Positions 53,293 through 62,719 of a DNA stretch of 64,000 bases are shown piece by piece. Positions within the stretch are counted from its first letter, which is position 1; each line of letters opens with the position of its first letter. The translations under genes were made by a program, and so were the position numbers. The notes under the pieces were generated by a model. It was not told where the DNA came from, made no database searches, and saw only the letters and a program-made list of their open reading frames with translations. This DNA is from Candidatus Methylacidiphilales bacterium (GTDB taxonomy: Bacteria > Verrucomicrobiota > Verrucomicrobiia > Methylacidiphilales > Verrucolacustridaceae). The stretch spans positions 14,563-78,562 of the forward strand of contig JBIKTM010000005.1 in NCBI GenBank assembly GCA_044348085.1, in the 5' to 3' direction.

Positions 53293-55392
53293 CTATTTCG
53301 AAGTCTGAATATACTCTCCTGCCCAGGATTCGGGCGGGGGATTTTTCAGGAATTCCTCGCAGATTTTTTTATAAGTTTTGGAGGGGCCATCGTGAGGATC
53401 AAGGGCAAGAGCTTCCTGAAACTTGGCGATAGCCTCCTTGAACTTTTTCGTGGCATGGAGCTTCCAGCCTTCTTCAAACAGTTGTACCACCCGCGCCTTG
53501 GTCTCGGAGAGTTCGCCTTTTTTGGCAAGGAGCTCGTAGCAGGGGACGGGCTCGGTCTTTCCTTTGACGATCATGTTGGCAAGGAAACGGGCCTCGATTT
53601 TGTCCTTTGCCATTTCGTAGGTTTTCCCGCCGATCATGATATGAGTATCGAAGGGTTTGTTGGCGGGCTCAAAACGGGCGGCTTGATTTACGGCGTCGCC
53701 CATCACGGTGTACTGAAACTTTTTGTCGGAGCCCATGTTGCCTGCGGCAACCTCTCCTGTGTTGATGCCCATTCGGGCGTCGATATCACAACCGTATTCG
53801 GCTTTGAGCTCCTGCTTAAGAGATTGAAGACGTTCCTGCTGTTCCAGCGCAGACCAGCAGGCTTTCCAGGCGTGGGAGTTAGGGTCTGGATCGACCCAAA
53901 CGGGGACTCCGAAGTCGGCCATAATGGCATCGCCTGAGTACTTATCGATGTAGCCGCCGTATTTGGTAACGAGATCGCTCATTGGGGTGAGGTAACGATT
54001 GAGGATTTTGGCAAGGTCCTCGGCAGAGACCGATTCGGAGATGGTGGTGAAACCGGCAAGATCGGAAAAAAATATGGAAACCATTCTTTTTTCTCCCGTC
54101 AGGCGGAAGCGGTCGGGATCCGCCTGCATGTAGGAGAGGACCTCGGGGCTGACCATGGTGGAGAACATTCCGCTGACGCGTCGCTTTTCCCGCTGTTCAA
54201 GGACGAACTCGTAGCCGAGGCAACCGATACCTCCGAAAAGAAGGGTGAGGCAGGGTGAGACAGCCGGAAGAATCAGGCTGAGTTTATCTTGAATCACGAA
54301 AGTGAGGACGGCGTATCCCAATCCAATCACGATCAGAAGAAGAAGACGGATGATAGGCTGTTTCGTGGCCAGAATGAGAATAAATGCGAGACCAGCCGCA
54401 CCGATAACTAGAGCGGGGAACATCCATGCAGGGGGAAGTTGGAGAAAACTGCCAGAAAGAGCAGCTCCGAGTGCCGCAAGGTGGACCTCGGGTCCAGGCA
54501 TCGGGTTGGGGTAGGGAGTGCGGATAACGTCTTTTGACCAGTTTCCGTATGGGCCCACGAGGACGATCTTGTTCTTGAGCATCTCCCCGTTTTGAAAAAC
54601 CTTTTCCCATGTGGAGGGAACAAAGAGTTGATAGACGGGGATGGCCTTGTAGTTGAAGTTGGGTGGGCCTGCAAAACGAAGGATGCCTGATCCTTGGGCA
54701 GGAATTCGATCGGCATAGCCTGCTTTTTCGAGCATGCGACATGCGAGTGAGACGGCGGGAATATCTTGGAATTGGCGCTGATAATCTGCTGAGCGGACGA
54801 TTCCGTCTTTCTCAGGCCAAAGATTCACAAAACCAACACGGCCTGCGGGATTATCTTTCGAAATTTCCGATGCCCCGAGAGAGGCCAGCGCAGCGGGAAG
54901 GGTCAGCTGGACGGAGGTGCGACCTGCATTACTAACTTCTTCAAATGTTCCACCCAAGACGGCATGGCTTCCCTCCTGATCCATGACTAGGAGAAGCTCT
55001 TGGTCCCCGTCCTTGGGGGTAGGAAACATGAGGTCGAGGCCGACCACCTTCGCACCCGCTTGGGAGATTCGTTGGATGACACTGGCCCAGACGGATCGGC
55101 GCCAAGGCCAGGAACCAGTCGACATTTCGGCTAAGGCAGGATCGGCGGCGATTTCTTCTTCCGAGAGGATATCCTTGTAAGTGGGTTTATCGATGGTGAT
55201 GAAGACAATCTCGGGCGAGAGGGGTGCGGTTTGCCCAAAGCGAACTCGAAGATCGCGAGTGTAAAGCTCGGCCTCGAGGAGGGGTTTGAACTGCATGAAG
55301 TTGAGAAGGCCGAGAAGAAGAGCCGCGCCTATGCAGATTCCGATTAGAATGATCCGACGCGATGCCGCCTCCTTTTTTGCAGTTTTGGCCAT
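53293..55392 (-). CDS. CHASE2-domain class III adenylate cyclase with C-terminal TPR
   Basis: CHASE2 (WPWRRSVW, GVEVH-like PGPEVH), three TM helices, FSDLAGFT, DKYSGDAIMA, YTVMGDAVNQAARFE. Confidence 0.92.
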   Translation of the reverse strand: MAKTAKKEAASRRIILIGICIGAALLLGLLNFMQFKPLLEAELYTRDLRVRFGQTAPLSPEIVFITIDKPTYKDILSEEEIAADPALAEMSTGSWPWRRSVWASVIQRISQAGAKVVGLDLMFPTPKDGDQELLLVMDQEGSHAVLGGTFEEVSNAGRTSVQLTLPAALASLGASEISKDNPAGRVGFVNLWPEKDGIVRSADYQRQFQDIPAVSLACRMLEKAGYADRIPAQGSGILRFAGPPNFNYKAIPVYQLFVPSTWEKVFQNGEMLKNKIVLVGPYGNWSKDVIRTPYPNPMPGPEVHLAALGAALSGSFLQLPPAWMFPALVIGAAGLAFILILATKQPIIRLLLLIVIGLGYAVLTFVIQDKLSLILPAVSPCLTLLFGGIGCLGYEFVLEQREKRRVSGMFSTMVSPEVLSYMQADPDRFRLTGEKRMVSIFFSDLAGFTTISESVSAEDLAKILNRYLTPMSDLVTKYGGYIDKYSGDAIMADFGVPVWVDPDPNSHAWKACWSALEQQERLQSLKQELKAEYGCDIDARMGINTGEVAAGNMGSDKKFQYTVMGDAVNQAARFEPANKPFDTHIMIGGKTYEMAKDKIEARFLANMIVKGKTEPVPCYELLAKKGELSETKARVVQLFEEGWKLHATKKFKEAIAKFQEALALDPHDGPSKTYKKICEEFLKNPPPESWAGEYIQTSK

Positions 55393-56733: not shown

Positions 56734-56830
56734 ATAGATACCCTATCAGCGGGGAGTTGCGCGAGGAAGAGGGGCGAGGAGTGGGCTGATTCAGGCTTGG
56801 GTGCGGTTGAATTTACTGCATATTGCCGTG

Positions 56831-57133
56831 ATGGCGGTCAAGCTAACGGGACATCAGATTGAAGTTGTGCTCTCTACCTTGGACGGGTGGAAGCAGGAAG
56901 GCGGCCAGATTTTGAAGGAGTACCAGTTTTCTGATTTCATTTCGGCTGCGATGTTTGTCTCGGGGGCTAATTTGGAGGCGGAAAAAGCCAATCATCATCC
57001 CGAGTTATTGCATCGGTACCAAAAAGTGAAGATTCAGTTGAGCACGCACGACGTGGGTGGGATTAGTGAACTGGATTTGCGGATGGCAAAGAAACTCGAT
57101 GCCCGAGCGAAGTCGCTGCAGGCTGTAGGGTAA
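56831..57133 (+). CDS. phhB: Pterin-4-alpha-carbinolamine dehydratase
   Basis: [29 protein letters not shown]. Confidence 0.9.
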
Positions 57134-57137
57134 ACCG

Positions 57138-58148
57138 ATGGCAAAAAAAGCGCTGATTACAGGAATCACGGGTCAGGATGGCTCCTATTTGGCAGAGCTT
57201 CTGTTGCAGAAGGGATATGAGGTCCATGGAATTATCCGCCGATCCTCAAGCTTCAATACTGAGCGGTTGGATGGGATTTACCGGGATCGGCATGAGAAAG
57301 GGACGAAGATCTTTTTGCATTTCGGGGATCTAAGTGATCCAAGTTCGATGATCAAAATTCTCGGCGAGACGCAACCGGACGAGATTTATAATCTGGCGGC
57401 ACAGAGCCATGTAAGGGTGAGTTTTGATATTCCGGAGTTCACGGGGGACGTGACGGGATTGGGGACGGTACGGTTGCTGGATGCCATGAGGGAGGTCACT
57501 CCGAAGGCGCGATTTTATCAGGCTTCAAGTTCGGAGATGTATGGGCTGGTTCAGGAAGTGCCGCAAAAGGAGACCACTCCATTTTATCCGCGGAGTCCGT
57601 ATGCGGTGGCCAAGGTATATTCGTACTGGATCACGGTGAACTACAGGGAGAGCTACGGGTTGCATGCATCGAACGGGATCTTGTTTAATCATGAGAGTCC
57701 GCGTCGTGGGGAGACCTTTGTAACACGTAAGATTACTCGGGCGGTGGCGAGGATTCATGCGGGTTTGCAGGAGAAGCTCTTCCTCGGGAATCTGGAATCA
57801 AAACGGGATTGGGGGTACGCCCCGGAGTATGTGGAGGGGATGTGGCGGATGTTGCAGCAGGAAAAGCCGGACGATTATGTTTTGGCGACTGGGGAAACGC
57901 ACAGCGTCCAGGAGTTCGTCGAGGTGGCGTTTGCCCGAGCGAAGTTGGATTGGAAGAAGCATGTGGCGTTCGATGAGCGGTATTTGAGGCCGGCGGAGGT
58001 AGATCTTCTGATTGGAGATGCCTCGAAAGCAAAGAAGCAGCTGGGTTGGGTGCCGAAAGTGAAGTTCAAGGAGCTGACGGAGATTATGGTGGATGCGGAT
58101 ATTGAGCAGTTGGCGGAGGAGCGGGCGGGGAAGCGTATTCGGGATTAG
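57138..58148 (+). CDS. gmd: GDP-mannose 4,6-dehydratase
   Basis: [63 protein letters not shown]. Confidence 0.98.
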
Positions 58149-59080
58149 TGATGAAGATCTTTGTGGCCGGTCACCGAGGGATGGTGGGCTCGGCCGTGGT
58201 GCGGGCCTTGGAGAAAAAAGGTGGATATCAGATTTTGACCCGAACAAGAGCGGAGCTTGATTTGACGGATTCCAAAGCGGTGGCGAACTGGTTTGAGAAG
58301 GAAAAGCCCGACCAGGTGATTGACGCGGCGGCACGTGTGGGCGGGATTTTGGAGAATTCAAAGCGTCCGGTGGAATTCTTATTGGAGAATCTGCGGATGC
58401 AGAACAATTTGATGGAGTCGGCCTTTGGGAATGGTTGTCGCAAATTTCTTTTTTTGGGGAGCTCCTGCATTTATCCGAAGCATGCGGAACAACCGATCCG
58501 GGAGGAGTCGTTGCTGGGCGGGCCTCTAGAGCCCACCAACGATGCATATGCACTGGCGAAAATTACCGGTGTGAGATTGGCTCAGGCGTACCGAGACGAG
58601 TATGGAAAGAGTGCGATTTCGGCGATGCCGACGAATTTATATGGTCCTGGGGATAATTTTGATCCGGAGAGTTCCCATGCTTTGCCTGGGATGATCACGA
58701 AGTTTCACCGGGCCAAGGTTCGGGGCGAGAAGGAGGTGGTTTTGTGGGGTACGGGCTCACCGAGAAGGGAGTGGTTGTATGTGGAGGATTTGGCGGACGG
58801 ATTAATGATGTTGTTGGAGAAGTACGATGGGCGGGAGATTGTGAATGTGGGGGTGGGGGAAGACTCGACGATTGCGGAGTTGGCGGAGAACGTGAAAAAG
58901 GCGGTGGGTTTTCTTGGGGGGATCCGTTGGGACAAGAGCAAACCGGACGGGACGCCTCGAAAGCTTTTAGATGTGACGAAGGTACGGGGAATGGGTTGGA
59001 AACCGAAGGTAACGATTGAGGATGGAATTGCTTCAACCTACGACTGGTTTTTGAAGAACGCTCCCGAAGCGAAGAGCTGA
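58148..59080 (+). CDS. fcl: GDP-L-fucose synthase
   Basis: [64 protein letters not shown]. Confidence 0.96.
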
Positions 59081-59101
59081 GTGAGAGGATTTGGTTGGAT
59101 A

Positions 59102-59857
59102 TTAATAGTATTCGACGATTCGAAAGAAGGCGCGGGGGTAGTTGAGGGGGAGGGGGCATTCAATCTTAAGTCCATTACCATCGATTCCGATGTTGCCTTC
59201 CACATTGATCCATTTGTTTGTAAACAAGTCGGTGCAAACCTGTAGGTCGTAAACGAGATACTCCCTCGATTGAAAGCTGAGCAGTGCCTGCCCGTTTTGC
59301 AGCTGGATTGAGAGTTGTGGGGGAAGTTGGGCATGGAGGGTCAGTGTGAAGTCTGTGCTCGGTAAGAAGAGGTTGTTTTTGTCCTGAGCTCGAAAGGCGA
59401 TCTGATAATCTCCAGGTTGATCAGTCGTAAAGATTCTTCCGTGGGCATGAGTTTCTCCGCCTAGGATCACTGGAAAGGCTGGGCGATCAGTTTCTGTTTG
59501 GTTCCAGCCGGAGGATCGGCTCCAGGTTGGAATCGTACTTCCAGATTCCCAGAAGGAGAAAAAAGCTCCTGTGGGGCCTGTCACGGAAACTAGTTCGATG
59601 ACAGGGTCGGATCCATCGGCTGAATTCAATACATTGACCTCAGTGGTGAACGTAAGTTCGCATGCAAAGTATCCACCGGGAAAATCTGGGGCATAGCCAC
59701 TGAAGGGTTCGCCTTGAGGAACAAAAAGGGCGATCTGATAACTTGGGCCATCCAGACCAAGTTGGCTTGGGTTCTGATAGGATTGGCCTACCTCCACATG
59801 ATCGTGGGCTTGTGCCCAGGCGGTGAAGATAAGTGCGGGAAGCAGGAGTTTCTTCAT
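59102..59857 (-). CDS. Secreted/surface His-motif protein, putative metal-binding
   Basis: ATG 59857; signal peptide ending AQA, then HDH; internal ETHAHG..FTTDQPGDYQIAF; C-terminal RAFFRIVEYY of the kind seen on verrucomicrobial surface proteins. Confidence 0.65.
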   Translation of the reverse strand: MKKLLLPALIFTAWAQAHDHVEVGQSYQNPSQLGLDGPSYQIALFVPQGEPFSGYAPDFPGGYFACELTFTTEVNVLNSADGSDPVIELVSVTGPTGAFFSFWESGSTIPTWSRSSGWNQTETDRPAFPVILGGETHAHGRIFTTDQPGDYQIAFRAQDKNNLFLPSTDFTLTLHAQLPPQLSIQLQNGQALLSFQSREYLVYDLQVCTDLFTNKWINVEGNIGIDGNGLKIECPLPLNYPRAFFRIVEYY

Positions 59858-60483
59858 GGGACCAGGAAAGAGGAGTTGGCTTGTGTGAGTCGTCTTTGGA
59901 CTTCGGTCCAAGAAAGGTTTTCTGCATGGCCGTCTGCAAACAGATAATTGGCGGATGGGCCGTGGCAGTTGACGTTTACTTCTCCACGAAACTGGTTCGG
60001 TGTTATTCGGGAAGCACCGCCACGGGTACCTGAAAAGTGAAAATGCTCGCCAGTCAGATTCGTGGCCAGTTCTGTGACCACCATGGTGCTGGAGGGACTT
60101 CGAAACGAGGGTGCTGTCACTCCATAGCCTTGTGCATCTGCTAAGGCATCGTTCCACGCGTAGGTGAGTTTCGATCGATGCTTAGGGACGGCACAGCAAC
60201 TTCCTAGAAAGTTGGTCTTCAAAAAATCGGCCAGAGTATTGGTCCATGAGGAGGCGACCCCCTGATGAGAAGTGCTCGGAAAACGCCCTGAATTCTCTCC
60301 GACGTAGAGTTGAACCGCTACGCCCACCTGTCTCAAGTCGTTCAAGCAACGGGTCGTTTTTGTTTTTTCGGTTACTCCGCGGGTGGCTGCAAGTCCAAGA
60401 GTTGTGAGGGTCGCGATGATGGTCACAACGGTTAGCAATTCGACCAGAGTGAAGGCTGGCGATTTTGTGAAAGATCGTTTCAT
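59854..60483 (-). CDS. Prepilin-type N-terminal cleavage/methylation protein with H-X9-DG motif
   Basis: AFTLVELLTVV, CLNDLRQVG.A..LY, HGPSANYLFADGH (exact H-X9-DG); ATG 60483. Confidence 0.9.
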   Translation of the reverse strand: MKRSFTKSPAFTLVELLTVVTIIATLTTLGLAATRGVTEKTKTTRCLNDLRQVGVAVQLYVGENSGRFPSTSHQGVASSWTNTLADFLKTNFLGSCCAVPKHRSKLTYAWNDALADAQGYGVTAPSFRSPSSTMVVTELATNLTGEHFHFSGTRGGASRITPNQFRGEVNVNCHGPSANYLFADGHAENLSWTEVQRRLTQANSSFLVP

Positions 60484-60523
60484 AAAAAAAGGGAAAGCCC
60501 CGCCCTCCTTTGCGGGAGGGCGG
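60484..60523 (-). terminator. Probable intrinsic terminator between the PEP-CTERM and pilin genes
   Basis: Minus strand: CCGCCCTCCC-GCAA-AGGAGGGCGG stem, then GGCTTTCCC and T7 directly before the pilin ATG. Confidence 0.6.
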
Positions 60524-60538
60524 AGTCCCCAATGGGAG

Positions 60539-61432
60539 CTAGCCTTTGCGCCTCCGAAGCAGGGCCAAGAGGGCGGCGCCGCCCAGAAGCAAGAAACCGG
60601 TTGAGGGTTCAGGCACCAGACCGACGGTGACGTTGGCCCCGTAAGTAGGGAATGTTGTGGGACCTTCCGTCGTCTGCAGGGCGTAATTCGCACCCCCGAC
60701 GAAGAAGGAGTAGTCGCCCGCTGCCAAACCGGAGAAGGTGGCGGTGACGAATCCGTCCGCCGTGCCGTCGCCGACAATCCCGGCCGCATTGCCGAAGTTG
60801 GCGGAGGTGCCATCCGCGGCATGGCCGATATAGGCGAAGTTCGCCAAACGTGCCGCGATCAGGATGCCGCTGGCGGGATCGCCGGCGGTGTTGTAGGTCG
60901 GGTCGTTGCCGATGGACCAGTTGCCTAGGGAGCGGAAGGAACCCTCTTTGCCGCTACCACCGAGGCCGGAGCCGTTGCCGCTTCCAAACTGATCCACCAA
61001 CGACTGGCTAGACAGCGCAGCGCCATCGTGCGCGAGCGCCTCCGTGCGGTAGATCGAGCCCTGCTGGACGCCTTCATTATTGGCCCGCTGAGCCAGTCCC
61101 AAGAAGAGGGAGAAGGCCGGCAGGAAGGTGCCGTTGGGGCCGGTGCCAAGTAGATTACGTTCGGCGGTGATCCTGACGCTCTGATCCGCAGTGAGAGGAT
61201 TTGCCAACGTGAACCGGAAAAACCTTCCGCGGTGACTATCGCCCCAGTCGGCATCGGTAGCATCGGCCCAACCGAAACCGCTTGAGATGGTTTGTGTGGT
61301 GTTGGACACGTCGGCGCTGATGATTAGGGTGCCGAAGTTCCGGTTGCTGTAGCTAATGTGAGCCAAGGCTTTGGTTCCAGCGATCGCCAGAATGCCACAA
61401 GCCATCAAAATATATTTAGTAATCCAGTTCAT
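60539..61432 (-). CDS. PEP-CTERM surface protein with predicted N-terminal His
   Basis: ATG 61432; signal peptide ending ALA, then HISY; DWGDSH, AHDG, GHAADG; C-terminal VPEPSTGFLLLGGAALLALLRRRKG; GC-rich (line 60721: 40/60). Confidence 0.92.
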   Translation of the reverse strand: MNWITKYILMACGILAIAGTKALAHISYSNRNFGTLIISADVSNTTQTISSGFGWADATDADWGDSHRGRFFRFTLANPLTADQSVRITAERNLLGTGPNGTFLPAFSLFLGLAQRANNEGVQQGSIYRTEALAHDGAALSSQSLVDQFGSGNGSGLGGSGKEGSFRSLGNWSIGNDPTYNTAGDPASGILIAARLANFAYIGHAADGTSANFGNAAGIVGDGTADGFVTATFSGLAAGDYSFFVGGANYALQTTEGPTTFPTYGANVTVGLVPEPSTGFLLLGGAALLALLRRRKG

Positions 61433-61506
61433 ATCTTTCTTCTTTCCTCCCGGACGAGCCGGGAAATCTGATCCAAGGGTTCGGACCAGCGGGTTAAATC
61501 TCAAAT

Positions 61507-61540
61507 GGAAGCCAACGCGTTGGCGTGGTTTCCAGAAACC
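61507..61540. promoter_or_regulatory. Adjacent inverted repeats in the leader-to-PEP-CTERM spacer
   Basis: Perfect 14-bp palindrome GCCAACGCGTTGGC (61511-61524) and GGTTTC-CA-GAAACC (61527-61540). Confidence 0.5.
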
Positions 61541-61553
61541 AAGCAGTTGAGAT

Positions 61554-61931
61554 TTAGGCTCTAGGAGGGGGGAGGAGTGGGGAGGCGCGATCCGCGCCCA
61601 TCAGATATTCAGTTGAGGAAAAGTGGGAAACTTCACGGGAGTTGGAAATGCGGCCTGTGACGGTTTCCAGAGCCCAGAGAAAATCAGCGGGGAGTGTTGA
61701 AAGTGCGGAAAGGGTCGTTGGGGTGGAATCGGGACGGGTCTGGGCAATTCGTTCGCACAATGAGCAGGGGTGTTGTCCGTCGAAAGTTTTCTTCAGCCCT
61801 ACGCCGAAACCGGATTCTTGGGAATAGGAGGTGAGCATCCAGCCCCACGCGACCGTTTGAAGGAGCCCTTGCGGCAAGCCGATCTGCCAAGCTAGGGCCA
61901 AGGTCATAACAAGGGCACAAAAACGTTTCAC
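61554..61931 (-). CDS. Small membrane protein with CxxC and C-terminal polyproline (DUF2946/CruR-like leader)
   Basis: 125 aa; hydrophobic N-terminus, TFDGQHPCSLC, C-terminal RASPLLPPPRA; first gene of the 59.1-61.9 kb operon. Confidence 0.65.
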   Translation of the reverse strand: MKRFCALVMTLALAWQIGLPQGLLQTVAWGWMLTSYSQESGFGVGLKKTFDGQHPCSLCERIAQTRPDSTPTTLSALSTLPADFLWALETVTGRISNSREVSHFSSTEYLMGADRASPLLPPPRA

Positions 61932-62020
61932 TTAAGTTGTCTTACTCCTATCCACAGGGACGGTCAACTTATGGAAGAAAGATAGTTGCGGAGTAAGATG
62001 GTATTGCGGATCGTTTTGGT

Positions 62021-62719
62021 ATGTCTGAAGTTCTAATTATCCAGCATGAAGCGGGGGAGGGCCCAGGCACGATTGAGGAGGAGCTCATTCGTGTGGGGCA
62101 TAAGGTGCGTAGGGTTCGGATCGATCAGGGCGATAAAGTGCCAAACGAAGTGGGCGTGATGGGTGGTTTGGTCGTGATGGGTGGATCCATGGGTGTGGGG
62201 GATCAGGGGAAATTAGGCCACCTCAAGGATGAGATCGCACTTTTGAAGCAGTTTCATAAAGCTGAGAAACCGATTTTGGGGATCTGTTTGGGAGCGCAGT
62301 TATTGGCAGCGGCGTTGGGCACCGAAGTGGCGGCGGGAGAAAAGGAGATTGGCTGGTTTCCTGTTCGAAAACTTCCAGACGCGTTTAAGGATCCGGTTTT
62401 ACGAAGGTTGCCTGAGAATTTTCCTGCCTTGATGTGGCATGGGGATCATTTTGCGTTACCCAAAGGGGCAGTCCATCTGTTGAGTACAGACAAGTGTGTC
62501 TGTGCTGCTTTTCGGCATGGGAAAAAGGCGTATGGATTGGTTCCGCATCTGGAGATGACGGCCGCGATGGTGGATGAGATGGTGGCCGGTTCGAGAAAAA
62601 AACTGGAGTCGGCGGGCGTTGAGGTTTCAGGGATTCTGGAGGATACTTCGGAAAACGCCGAACCAGCAGAGGAGTTAGCCCGAGTGATGTGGAGGGCGTG
62701 GATCGGATTGTTGAGTTAA
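62021..62719 (+). CDS. Type 1 glutamine amidotransferase (GMP-synthase-like)
   Basis: QHEAGEGPG, MGGSM, GICLGAQ, WHGD, PHLE. Confidence 0.9.
   Translation: MSEVLIIQHEAGEGPGTIEEELIRVGHKVRRVRIDQGDKVPNEVGVMGGLVVMGGSMGVGDQGKLGHLKDEIALLKQFHKAEKPILGICLGAQLLAAALGTEVAAGEKEIGWFPVRKLPDAFKDPVLRRLPENFPALMWHGDHFALPKGAVHLLSTDKCVCAAFRHGKKAYGLVPHLEMTAAMVDEMVAGSRKKLESAGVEVSGILEDTSENAEPAEELARVMWRAWIGLLS

Follow-up and report, generated by a model that had tools for sequence, protein, structure and literature searches.

A Verrucomicrobiota family of small leader-type proteins with a putative metal site and a CutF-type polyproline tail

A 64,000-nucleotide (nt) stretch of DNA from a Candidatus Methylacidiphilales bacterium of the phylum Verrucomicrobiota (assembly GCA_044348085.1, contig JBIKTM010000005.1, positions 14,563 to 78,562), hereafter the window, carries on its reverse strand a small open reading frame (ORF) that heads an operon for a PEP-CTERM protein, a prepilin-type protein and a further exported protein. 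We refer to the small ORF as the leader and to the genes behind it as its cargo. The leader ORF is a real, conserved gene. By sequence comparison it belongs to a distinct, phylum-wide, unannotated family that follows the plan of the metal-sensing nascent chains CruR and CutF, with a CutF-type PPPR tail and no membership of DUF2946. Taking this architecture together with the RNA that follows it, we lean, at somewhat better than even confidence, towards the hypothesis that the leader is a metal-sensing, probably copper-sensing, arrest peptide whose stall switches the operon ON.

The leader product is MKRFCALVMTLALAWQIGLPQGLLQTVAWGWMLTSYSQESGFGVGLKKTFDGQHPCSLCERIAQTRPDSTPTTLSALSTLPADFLWALETVTGRISNSREVSHFSSTEYLMGADRASPLLPPPRA, with GGAG 13 nt 5' of its GTG start and a TAA stop at 61556-61554, and a divergent glutamine amidotransferase gene, whose start is at 62021, adjoins it; the coordinates of all features are collected in Table 1. 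The ORF matched no Pfam or NCBIfam model at E ≤ 1, and a search for paralogues in the window's own genome found none, the gene being single-copy. Relatives are nevertheless numerous. A word-indexed search returned 58 cluster representatives from metagenome or metagenome-assembled genome (MAG) sources, called 'hypothetical protein' wherever they are named and in two cases labelled Verrucomicrobia bacterium, and an exhaustive search at E ≤ 0.001 found 1423 representatives of 50%-identity clusters. Relatives are encoded in 538 species genomes of a GTDB-based collection, and nearly all of those listed are labelled Verrucomicrobiota. A family profile made from 74 diverse members matches about a quarter of the Verrucomicrobiota genomes sampled (70 of 301, covering 46 of 149 genera), and genomes that have the gene hold one to three copies. 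The family merits an annotation model of its own; its genes are currently called 'hypothetical protein' or missed.

Conservation was assessed in an alignment of 74 diverse representatives with a mean column identity of 30%. W29, M32, T49, F50, G52, C56, C59, P122 and P123 are invariant in all 74, and Q25, A28, Y36, D51, H54, P55, P118, P121 and R124 are kept in at least 90% of them. Because the leader motifs are invariant or nearly so across proteins that share about 30% identity, they are beyond chance. The signature of the family thus reads, from start to stop, as a signal-like N-terminus, then LQxVAWxxM and TFDGxHPCxxC, then a spacer whose sequence is hardly conserved, and finally PPxPPPR with a few residues between it and the stop. 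A first-pass annotation of this DNA had noticed a membrane-targeting N-terminus and a CSLC motif, and both are present: K2 and R3 precede a single strongly hydrophobic stretch, residues 4-17 (Kyte-Doolittle 11-residue mean up to 2.5), that resembles a signal peptide or signal anchor, and CSLC corresponds to C56-C59 (61766-61755) within TFDGQHPCSLC, where both Cys are invariant across the 74 representatives. In the AlphaFold model, residues 1-65 are predicted with a predicted local distance difference test (pLDDT) score above 90 and form helices 2-16, 19-40, 42-50 and 57-65, the Cys pair lying at the N-terminus of the last; the final 15 residues score 74-83, above the linker before them. A fold search with this model gave no PDB match. 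An exported domain is favoured over a helical hairpin, since only residues 4-17 are strongly hydrophobic and the second helix is amphipathic, often with K, R or T at positions 30-31.

The C-terminus had been described in the first-pass annotation as a non-canonical RAPP end. The motifs it named are there, with PPPRA (residues 121-125, 61571-61557) directly before the stop in a tail that reads DRASPLLPPPRA, yet the label does not fit the family: R115 and A116 of RASP are conserved in the window's subfamily only, the family-wide position reads (S/A)PP, and the shared motif is PPxPPPR-x(1-4)-stop. Among 136 representatives with the Cys motif, 102 carry PPP[RK] no more than 10 residues from the end, and in 90 of those 102 it lies 1-4 residues before the stop. 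Counted from the second Cys to where PPP begins, the spacing falls within 57-63 residues in 77% (mode 58, range 57-72); in the window leader, CxxC is separated from RASP by 55 residues and from PPP by 61, the latter being the value of its subfamily. The end seems better described as canonical CutF-type than as non-canonical RAPP, because LPPPRA-stop has the same PPP-R-x-stop layout as the GPPPRL-stop of CutF. Rhodobacter capsulatus CutF, a protein of 118 amino acids (aa), carries C69xxH72C73 and ends in P109EPEGPPPRL118; it has no Pfam match, and 'CutF-like' proteins were gathered, in Proteobacteria only, by rules (under 170 aa, no Pfam domain, a signal peptide and a central CXXXC, with Cys-containing variants accepted; PMC8456105). 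Against these rules, the window leader fits in its 125 aa, its lack of a Pfam or NCBIfam match, its signal-like N-terminus and its C-terminal Pro motif, with HPCxxC in place of CxxHC or CxxxC.

CruR, in turn, is defined as a PF11162 member that has CXXC, then 45 ± 2 residues, then RAPP at three residues from its end (PMC9426467). The leader had also been called CruR-like, and by sequence it is not. The PF11162 (DUF2946) model matched 0 of the 74 family members at E ≤ 10, and in an hhalign comparison with seven genuine verrucomicrobial DUF2946 proteins the family reached a probability of 2.2%, over 15 columns around the Cys motif; with the Pfam scan of the ORF itself, this rules out the leader as a DUF2946 member. 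The window's genome has no DUF2946 match above the cut-off. Genuine DUF2946 does occur elsewhere in the phylum, with above-cut-off matches in 4 of 201 genomes, and these genes (loci L085-L094) are canonical, with CPLCQL, about 45 aa and then RAPP, RGPP or CGPP near the stop. As judged from these sequences, two separate leader families coexist in Verrucomicrobiota, DUF2946 and the new one. A literature search that paired DUF2946 with Verrucomicrobia or Planctomycetes gave, among its top-ranked hits, no paper that mentions DUF2946. What comparison does support in the earlier proposal is a verrucomicrobial, metal-linked, leader-type small ORF with CruR/CutF architecture, an assignment that we make because the family combines an export signal with a Cys motif, a length-conserved spacer, a Pro motif by the stop and first place in the operon, and has copper genes downstream in relatives.

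Those downstream genes were tallied across the family. At locus L001, which holds the distant member P0058, the genes behind the leader encode, in order, a TonB-dependent receptor, a PepSY_TM protein and a PCuAC-type (LpqE-like) protein. The order matches cruR-bfrG-bp2921, and the partners are those reported for CruR homologues. At 63 loci, the first downstream genes include N_methyl pseudopilins (13), TonB receptors (8), MetA-type barrels (5), PEP-CTERM proteins (5), DUF1559 proteins (4) and SCO1 (1). A wider count of plus-strand ORFs up to about 4 kb downstream, at some 68 loci outside the window's subfamily, gave N_methyl 19, DUF1559 10, SCO1/SenC 9, TonB receptors 8 and MetA-type barrels 5, and more rarely CopC 3, CusF 3, CopD 2, PepSY_TM 2, Fur 2 and ZnuA 1. 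Read this way, the copper theme is clear at the level of the family and only indirect for the window's own operon, whose pseudopilin and PEP-CTERM protein are unexpected cargo for such a leader. The ALA|HISY junction of the PEP-CTERM protein is invariant in 31 homologues, and the protein also has invariant Asp/His-rich motifs and an invariant GWADATDADWGDSHR motif; together with the His that would follow signal-peptide cleavage in both exported cargo proteins, this hints at metal sites. The cargo met most often is the H-X9-DG / DUF1559 prepilin-type protein (loci L016-L082), which shares operons with SCO1, CopC and TonB receptors. This could give an abundant but uncharacterised protein class its first functional clue, towards metal handling.

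The whole arrangement recurs in relatives. The four-gene cassette of leader, PEP-CTERM-like protein (~272-297 aa), pseudopilin (~209 aa) and a protein of ~250 aa persists at 55-60% leader identity, and the genes upstream of it vary: a HupE/UreJ metal-transporter-like gene, an ion-channel gene or LplA in relatives (L105:823-1416; L106-L108:635-1417) and the glutamine amidotransferase gene in the window. Because the upstream neighbours differ between relatives, leader and cargo would be the unit that moves. The leader itself looks like a portable cassette. At L010:5376-5545 a leader is 90% identical, yet spacer and downstream protein are wholly different from the stop codon on, and at L004 and L007 the spacer and the signal peptide are kept and the mature part of the cargo protein is swapped. 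Contigs from freshwater and marine metatranscriptomes run from the leader across the spacer to the 5' end of the following gene (for example 61406-61653 and 61442-61639), consistent with co-transcription of leader and cargo, though the contigs are unstranded and may include DNA. Position 61957 was considered as a 5' end and rejected, as the Logan contig ends there coincide with a strain variant at 61958.

The spacer between the leader and the first cargo gene is predicted to be highly structured. For the 181 nt between 61600 and 61420 the predicted folding energy is -62.5 kcal/mol (z-score -2.9), and for the P1 domain, which begins at the leader stop codon, it is -19 kcal/mol (z-score -3.75). 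Comparison of 18 homologous spacers, from two clades and several intermediates, shows helices P1, P3 and P4 to be 93% paired. Nine pairs, of which seven belong to P4, have changed on both sides, and the covariation score was reached in 0 of 500 column shuffles. The Shine-Dalgarno sequence of the first cargo gene can pair in two ways. Hairpin P5 sequesters it locally and has one GC-to-AU compensated pair among the 18 spacers. Alternatively, the stall-site codons UCCUCCC pair with it over a long range, flanked by pairing of GAGCC (61561-57) with GGCUC, as found in minimum free energy (MFE) folds and by RNAalifold; these long-range helices reach 95% pairing. A single AU-to-GC compensated pair joins the third position of the Arg codon to a P5 loop base, and one position, which co-varies within P5, is broken in six sequences. 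Without constraints, the ensemble gives pairing of the Shine-Dalgarno with the leader tail a probability of 0.97 in the window and 0.52-0.93 in four relatives. The models are compatible with a Shine-Dalgarno that is always masked, either by P5 or by UCCUCCC, the two competing for the same G residues.

Other readings of the spacer fared less well. An Rfam scan of the spacer and the 5' region gave no match at E ≤ 1. P3 with its U-tract was flagged by a scan as an intrinsic terminator and rejected, since such sites are fewer than expected from shuffled sequences. A +1 frameshift at CCC-CCU that would fuse the leader to the next ORF was likewise discarded, as the offset varies (0, 1, 2) and stops intervene in relatives. 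In several relatives, as in the window, no stop interrupts the downstream frame when it is traced back across the spacer into the leader tail (61432-61600 on the reverse strand, +1 relative to the leader); this open frame is not conserved in other relatives, and we judged it coincidental.

The codons at the proposed stall site carry signals of their own. The second Pro of PPP is encoded by CCU in 28 of 53 leaders, a codon that has a 13.5% share of the Pro codons in these loci's long ORFs, and CCUCC occurs within 24 nt around PPPR in 22 of 40 leaders outside the window's subfamily, where synonymous-codon resampling gives 11.7 ± 2.8 and reached 22 in 0 of 2000 simulations. Pairing between the Shine-Dalgarno and the tail was scored at 35 loci with a guessed downstream start and a Shine-Dalgarno-like motif, taking at least four Shine-Dalgarno nt paired in the MFE structure as positive, and was found at 19 loci against 13.2 ± 2.1 after synonymous recoding of the tail. 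The downstream starts are rough guesses, and the loci lack phylogenetic independence. These biases argue for selection on RNA or decoding at the stall site, which may act on a rare slow codon, on Shine-Dalgarno complementarity or on both.

Taking into consideration (i) the export signal and Cys motif, (ii) the polyproline motif fixed at the stop and (iii) the predicted masking of the next Shine-Dalgarno, we hypothesize the following sequence of events. The nascent leader product would act as the sensor, its N-terminal signal targeting the peptide to the membrane or periplasm, where the His-x-Cys-x-x-Cys site would be presented, most likely for copper. Some 61 residues later, two codons before the stop, the ribosome would reach PPP. 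In other systems PPP slows peptide-bond formation unless elongation factor P (EF-P) helps; in CutF it stalls the ribosome, the stall is normally relieved by EF-P, copper on the exported Cys motif overrides EF-P, and the stall melts a stem-loop that hides the cutO Shine-Dalgarno (bioRxiv 10.1101/2025.02.05.636593; PMC9973294). In the leader, the paused ribosome would hold P122 in its P site and P123 in its A site, and P1, which begins at the stop codon 6 nt past the A-site codon and would sit at the mRNA entrance, should reinforce the pause. In the free mRNA, UCCUCCC and GAGCC would pair with the Shine-Dalgarno region 105 nt downstream, P1 and P4 bringing the two regions together, whereas a paused ribosome would cover these C-rich tail codons. 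A long pause would then promote expression of the operon for the PEP-CTERM protein, the pseudopilin and the exported protein, and a ribosome that passes quickly on to the stop would turn it off. Metal on the exposed Cys site would alter the dwell at PPP, either inducing the stall, as in CutF, or relieving it, as in CruR; by analogy, uptake-type cargo (TonB receptor, PepSY_TM, PCuAC, SCO1) would fit the CruR logic. As the spacing of 58-62 residues is longer than in CruR (45) and CutF (40), the Cys site would lie well clear of the exit tunnel during the pause, consistent with sensing beyond the translocon. The genome encodes both EF-P and Rho.

Several observations weigh against this proposal. 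Both stalling and metal sensing are things that we infer from comparison. No homology to DUF2946 was detected with the ORF scan, the 74 members or hhalign, the window's cargo genes have no proven copper link, and the AlphaFold model of the PEP-CTERM protein is unusable (pLDDT 44.5). The N-terminal 65 residues of the leader, conserved and confidently modelled (pLDDT >90), go beyond what a disposable sensor needs. At the RNA level, covariation at one position (columns 143/149) speaks for P5 and against the long-range helix. Pairing of the Shine-Dalgarno with the tail exceeds the recoded controls modestly, with 1 of 20 recoded replicates reaching 19, and Pro codons are intrinsically complementary to GGAGG. 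In a thermodynamic model, a ribosome placed on PPP lowers the cost of opening the ribosome-binding site (RBS) only from 12.7 to 11.5 kcal/mol in the window, and, over all sequences modelled, from 12.7-17.9 to 11.5-13.4 kcal/mol, a drop of 1-5 kcal/mol in relatives; the gain is small because the Shine-Dalgarno falls into P5 once the tail is covered.

This small gain leaves space for another output, and the same arrest-peptide sensor could instead act on transcription: the C-rich 3' half of the leader RNA would be a loading site for Rho, a ribosome held at PPP would keep it from the RNA or from the polymerase, and quick termination of the leader would let Rho stop transcription in the spacer or the next gene. 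The 3' half of the leader mRNA (61520-61780, reverse strand) indeed has a composition like that of a Rho utilization (rut) site, with C at 0.33-0.47, G at 0.12-0.22, a C/G ratio of 1.5-4 and many YC dimers; this C-richness comes in part from the Pro/Thr/Ser/Leu/Ala composition of the protein, and a rut site or termination point is not definable in silico. A U-rich tract after P3 is a possible pause site, the genome has a rho gene, and CruR works via Rho with a spacer of 162 nt (PMC9426467), compared with 121 nt in the window and roughly 150-280 nt in family members that precede TonB receptors. However, the window's spacer is highly structured and its structure is conserved, which is unfavourable to Rho, and the PPPR tail matches CutF, whose output is translational, rather than the RAPP of CruR. 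We consider a Rho-dependent output unlikely.

The conserved N-terminal unit raises a different alternative, in which the leader product is a stable small exported or membrane-anchored copper-binding protein, a chaperone or accessory subunit of the downstream uptake or surface system, and PPxPPPR is a polyproline-II interaction motif that packs on the W29/M32/Y36 surface or binds a partner, with no stall. Residues 1-65 do form a strongly conserved, confidently modelled helical unit, the rise to pLDDT 74-83 in the last 15 residues after a poor linker hints at a predicted contact, the operon partners SCO1, PCuAC, CopC and CusF are of chaperone type, and early CutF work weighed a chaperone role and a polyproline-II interaction motif (PMC8456105). 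Several features are hard to place in such a protein: 90 of 102 representatives keep the Pro motif at a distance of 1-4 residues from the stop, the 50-residue linker holds its length but not its sequence, a synonymous-site bias at the Pro codons is unexpected for a purely structural motif, and the stop codon lies inside a conserved helix with tail codons complementary to the next Shine-Dalgarno. Moreover, the CutF and CruR products are undetectable in cells (PMC9426467; PMC9973294). Structural and stalling roles are compatible with each other, and a purely structural one appears improbable to us.

A bolder version of the arrest-peptide hypothesis, which we hold tentatively and regard as rather doubtful, is that the family evolved independently as copper-sensing arrest peptides convergent on CutF and CruR, with the stall-site codons (CCU-CCN, CUC-CUC-CCC) serving as the anti-Shine-Dalgarno strand. 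Ribosome dwell time would then be read out directly as RBS exposure, and H-X9-DG/DUF1559 pseudopilins and PEP-CTERM proteins with an N-terminal His would be part of an unrecognised copper-acquisition or copper-handling surface apparatus of Verrucomicrobiota. More generally, nascent-chain metal sensing has so far been described, in CutF and CruR, for DUF2946-type proteins, almost all from Proteobacteria. If the arrest-peptide hypothesis is true, the principle extends to a whole phylum through a distinct sequence family that current models do not detect, and the two groups offer a natural comparison of how spacing (~60 against 40-45 residues) and stall motif set the site of sensing. The leader would also be a first regulatory handle on the abundant, uncharacterised H-X9-DG pseudopilins and PEP-CTERM proteins, which become candidates for metal acquisition if they are switched by a copper-type leader.

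Upstream of the leader, the first-pass annotation had reported nested inverted repeats and suggested that they may add transcriptional control. The repeats exist, as a 9-mer pair (TCTTACTCC at 61998-61990 with GGAGTAAGA at 61948-61940) and a 7-mer pair (TAAGTTG at 61971-61965 with CAACTTA at 61939-61933, all in mRNA sense), but they are interleaved in the order A..B..A'B' and not nested; the number of such pairs expected by chance in a 130-nt region is estimated at ~0.03 for a 9-mer and ~0.5 for a 7-mer. Extra control by them is weakly founded: in L008 and L009, relatives at 89-92% protein identity, the 7-mer pair B/B' is lost, and the 9-mer pair A/A' keeps 7-8 of 9 pairs in relatives through one-sided changes that create G-U, so that a conserved RNA switch was rejected. 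A scan for sigma-70-type promoters over 59000-62200 gave no match. At most, since the A' arm, GGAGUAAGA, includes the leader's own Shine-Dalgarno, an upstream hairpin may mask it.

Within the operon, the hairpin between the PEP-CTERM and pseudopilin genes probably acts as a partial terminator that leaves the first cargo protein in excess of the later ones. The pseudopilin gene has no obvious Shine-Dalgarno except a GGAGG within this hairpin (60498-60525). Farther along the window, a 699-aa ORF (53293-55392, reverse strand) has membrane segments and, judged by eye, a cyclase-like C-terminal part; an ORF of ~110 aa at 56801-57133 lies outside the leader finding; and the ORF pair 57138-58148 and 58148-59080, when its translations are inspected by eye, resembles GDP-mannose 4,6-dehydratase and GDP-fucose synthase.

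Table 1. Features of the leader and its operon, in window coordinates.
Feature	Position	Strand	Details
Leader ORF	61554..61931	(-)	125 aa, GTG start, TAA stop; member of the unannotated Verrucomicrobiota family
Signal-peptide or signal-anchor-like N-terminus (MKR + hydrophobic residues 4-17)	61875..61931	(-)	Hydropathy; AlphaFold helix 2-16; R3 nearly invariant
Conserved amphipathic helix LLQTVAWGWM	61836..61865	(-)	Family consensus LQxVAWxxM; W29, M32 invariant; alignment and AlphaFold
TFDGQHPCSLC, putative metal site (H54, C56, C59; possibly D51)	61755..61787	(-)	Invariant or nearly invariant columns
Linker, residues 60-114	61590..61754	(-)	Poorly conserved sequence, conserved length; RNA C-rich, G-poor (C/G ratio 1.5-4); pLDDT 57-69
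RASP, residues 115-118	61578..61589	(-)	Family-wide, only P118 conserved
UCCUCCC, codons L119-P121, exact complement of the downstream Shine-Dalgarno	61570..61576	(-)	MFE, RNAalifold, pair counts
PPP-R-A-stop, proposed arrest site (P-site P122, A-site P123)	61554..61571	(-)	Alignment; likeness to CutF tail
Interleaved inverted repeats	61933..61998	(-)	A' (61948-61940) holds the leader's GGAG Shine-Dalgarno; conserved TTGACC (61967-61962), -35-like
Structured intergenic region, 121 nt	61433..61553	(-)	Folding and homologue comparison
Helix P1 domain, encloses P3 (61511-61524)	61496..61556	(-)	5' arm UAAAUCUCAA from the stop codon, 3' arm UUGAGAUUUA
Hairpin P4	61468..61489	(-)	7/9 pairs with compensatory changes; -11.7 kcal/mol, z-score -3.4
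Hairpin P5 (UUCCCGG/CCGGGAG), predicted to mask the Shine-Dalgarno	61447..61465	(-)	-10.6 kcal/mol; 100% paired, 18 sequences
Shine-Dalgarno GGGAGGA of the downstream gene	61445..61451	(-)	Position before the first cargo gene
First cargo gene, 297-aa PEP-CTERM protein	60539..61432	(-)	ALA|H junction, mature N-terminal His invariant; conserved GWADATDADWGDSHR motif
GC-rich hairpin + T-tract (to about 60486), intrinsic-terminator-like	60498..60525	(-)	Between PEP-CTERM stop (60539) and pseudopilin ATG (60483)
209-aa prepilin-type (N-methylation) protein	59854..60483	(-)	Literal H-X9-DG motif near the C-terminus
251-aa exported protein (AQA|HDHVE)	59102..59857	(-)	Weak similarity to choice-of-anchor M; ATG overlaps the pseudopilin stop (ATGA)

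SecM (RAGP) and the RAPP-type ApdA and ApdP are force- or ligand-sensitive arrest peptides. Like them, the window leader is a predicted secreted leader with a stall site, here proposed, by the stop, where the stall would remodel the downstream mRNA, and the R-A-S-P of its subfamily resembles R-A-G-P and R-A-P-P. It differs from them in that R115 and A116 are not kept family-wide, polyproline being the conserved element, and in that its cargo does not consist of secretion-machinery genes.

CruR (Bp2923 of Bordetella pertussis, DUF2946/PF11162; PMC9426467) is closer. It shares with the window leader an export signal, a CxxC motif, a Pro-containing motif near the stop at conserved spacing and a long spacer before the next gene (162 nt in CruR, PMC9426467; 121 nt in the window), and relatives in the new family head TonB-receptor / PepSY_TM / PCuAC / SCO1 operons, with locus L001 in cruR gene order. 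The motif itself differs, being RAPP in CruR and PPxPPPR in the new family, where the window tail has no RAPP, and so does the distance from Cys to motif, 45 residues against about 58-62. The output of CruR is Rho-dependent; here, a rho gene in the genome and a rut-like composition of the leader RNA are what is seen.

With CutF, as described in the literature on that protein, the differences lie in the metal motif (C69xxH72C73 against CxxC inside TFDGxHPCxxC), in the distance from Cys to PPP (40 residues against 61 in the window and 57-63 in the family), in the extra conserved amphipathic helix LQxVAWxxM of the new family, in the RNA (a single hairpin directly after the stop against a 121-nt multi-helix spacer with long-range pairing), in the cargo (a multicopper oxidase against a PEP-CTERM protein and a pseudopilin) and in the host range (Proteobacteria against Verrucomicrobiota). 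What the two have in common is their small size (118 aa in CutF, 125 aa in the window leader), an export signal, a central Cys/His metal motif, putative in the window leader, no Pfam match of their own, the presence of EF-P in the genome and first place in the operon, followed by a gene whose Shine-Dalgarno is hidden in RNA structure, as predicted for the window, and above all the PPP-R-x-stop ending, GPPPRL-stop in CutF and LPPPRA-stop in the window.

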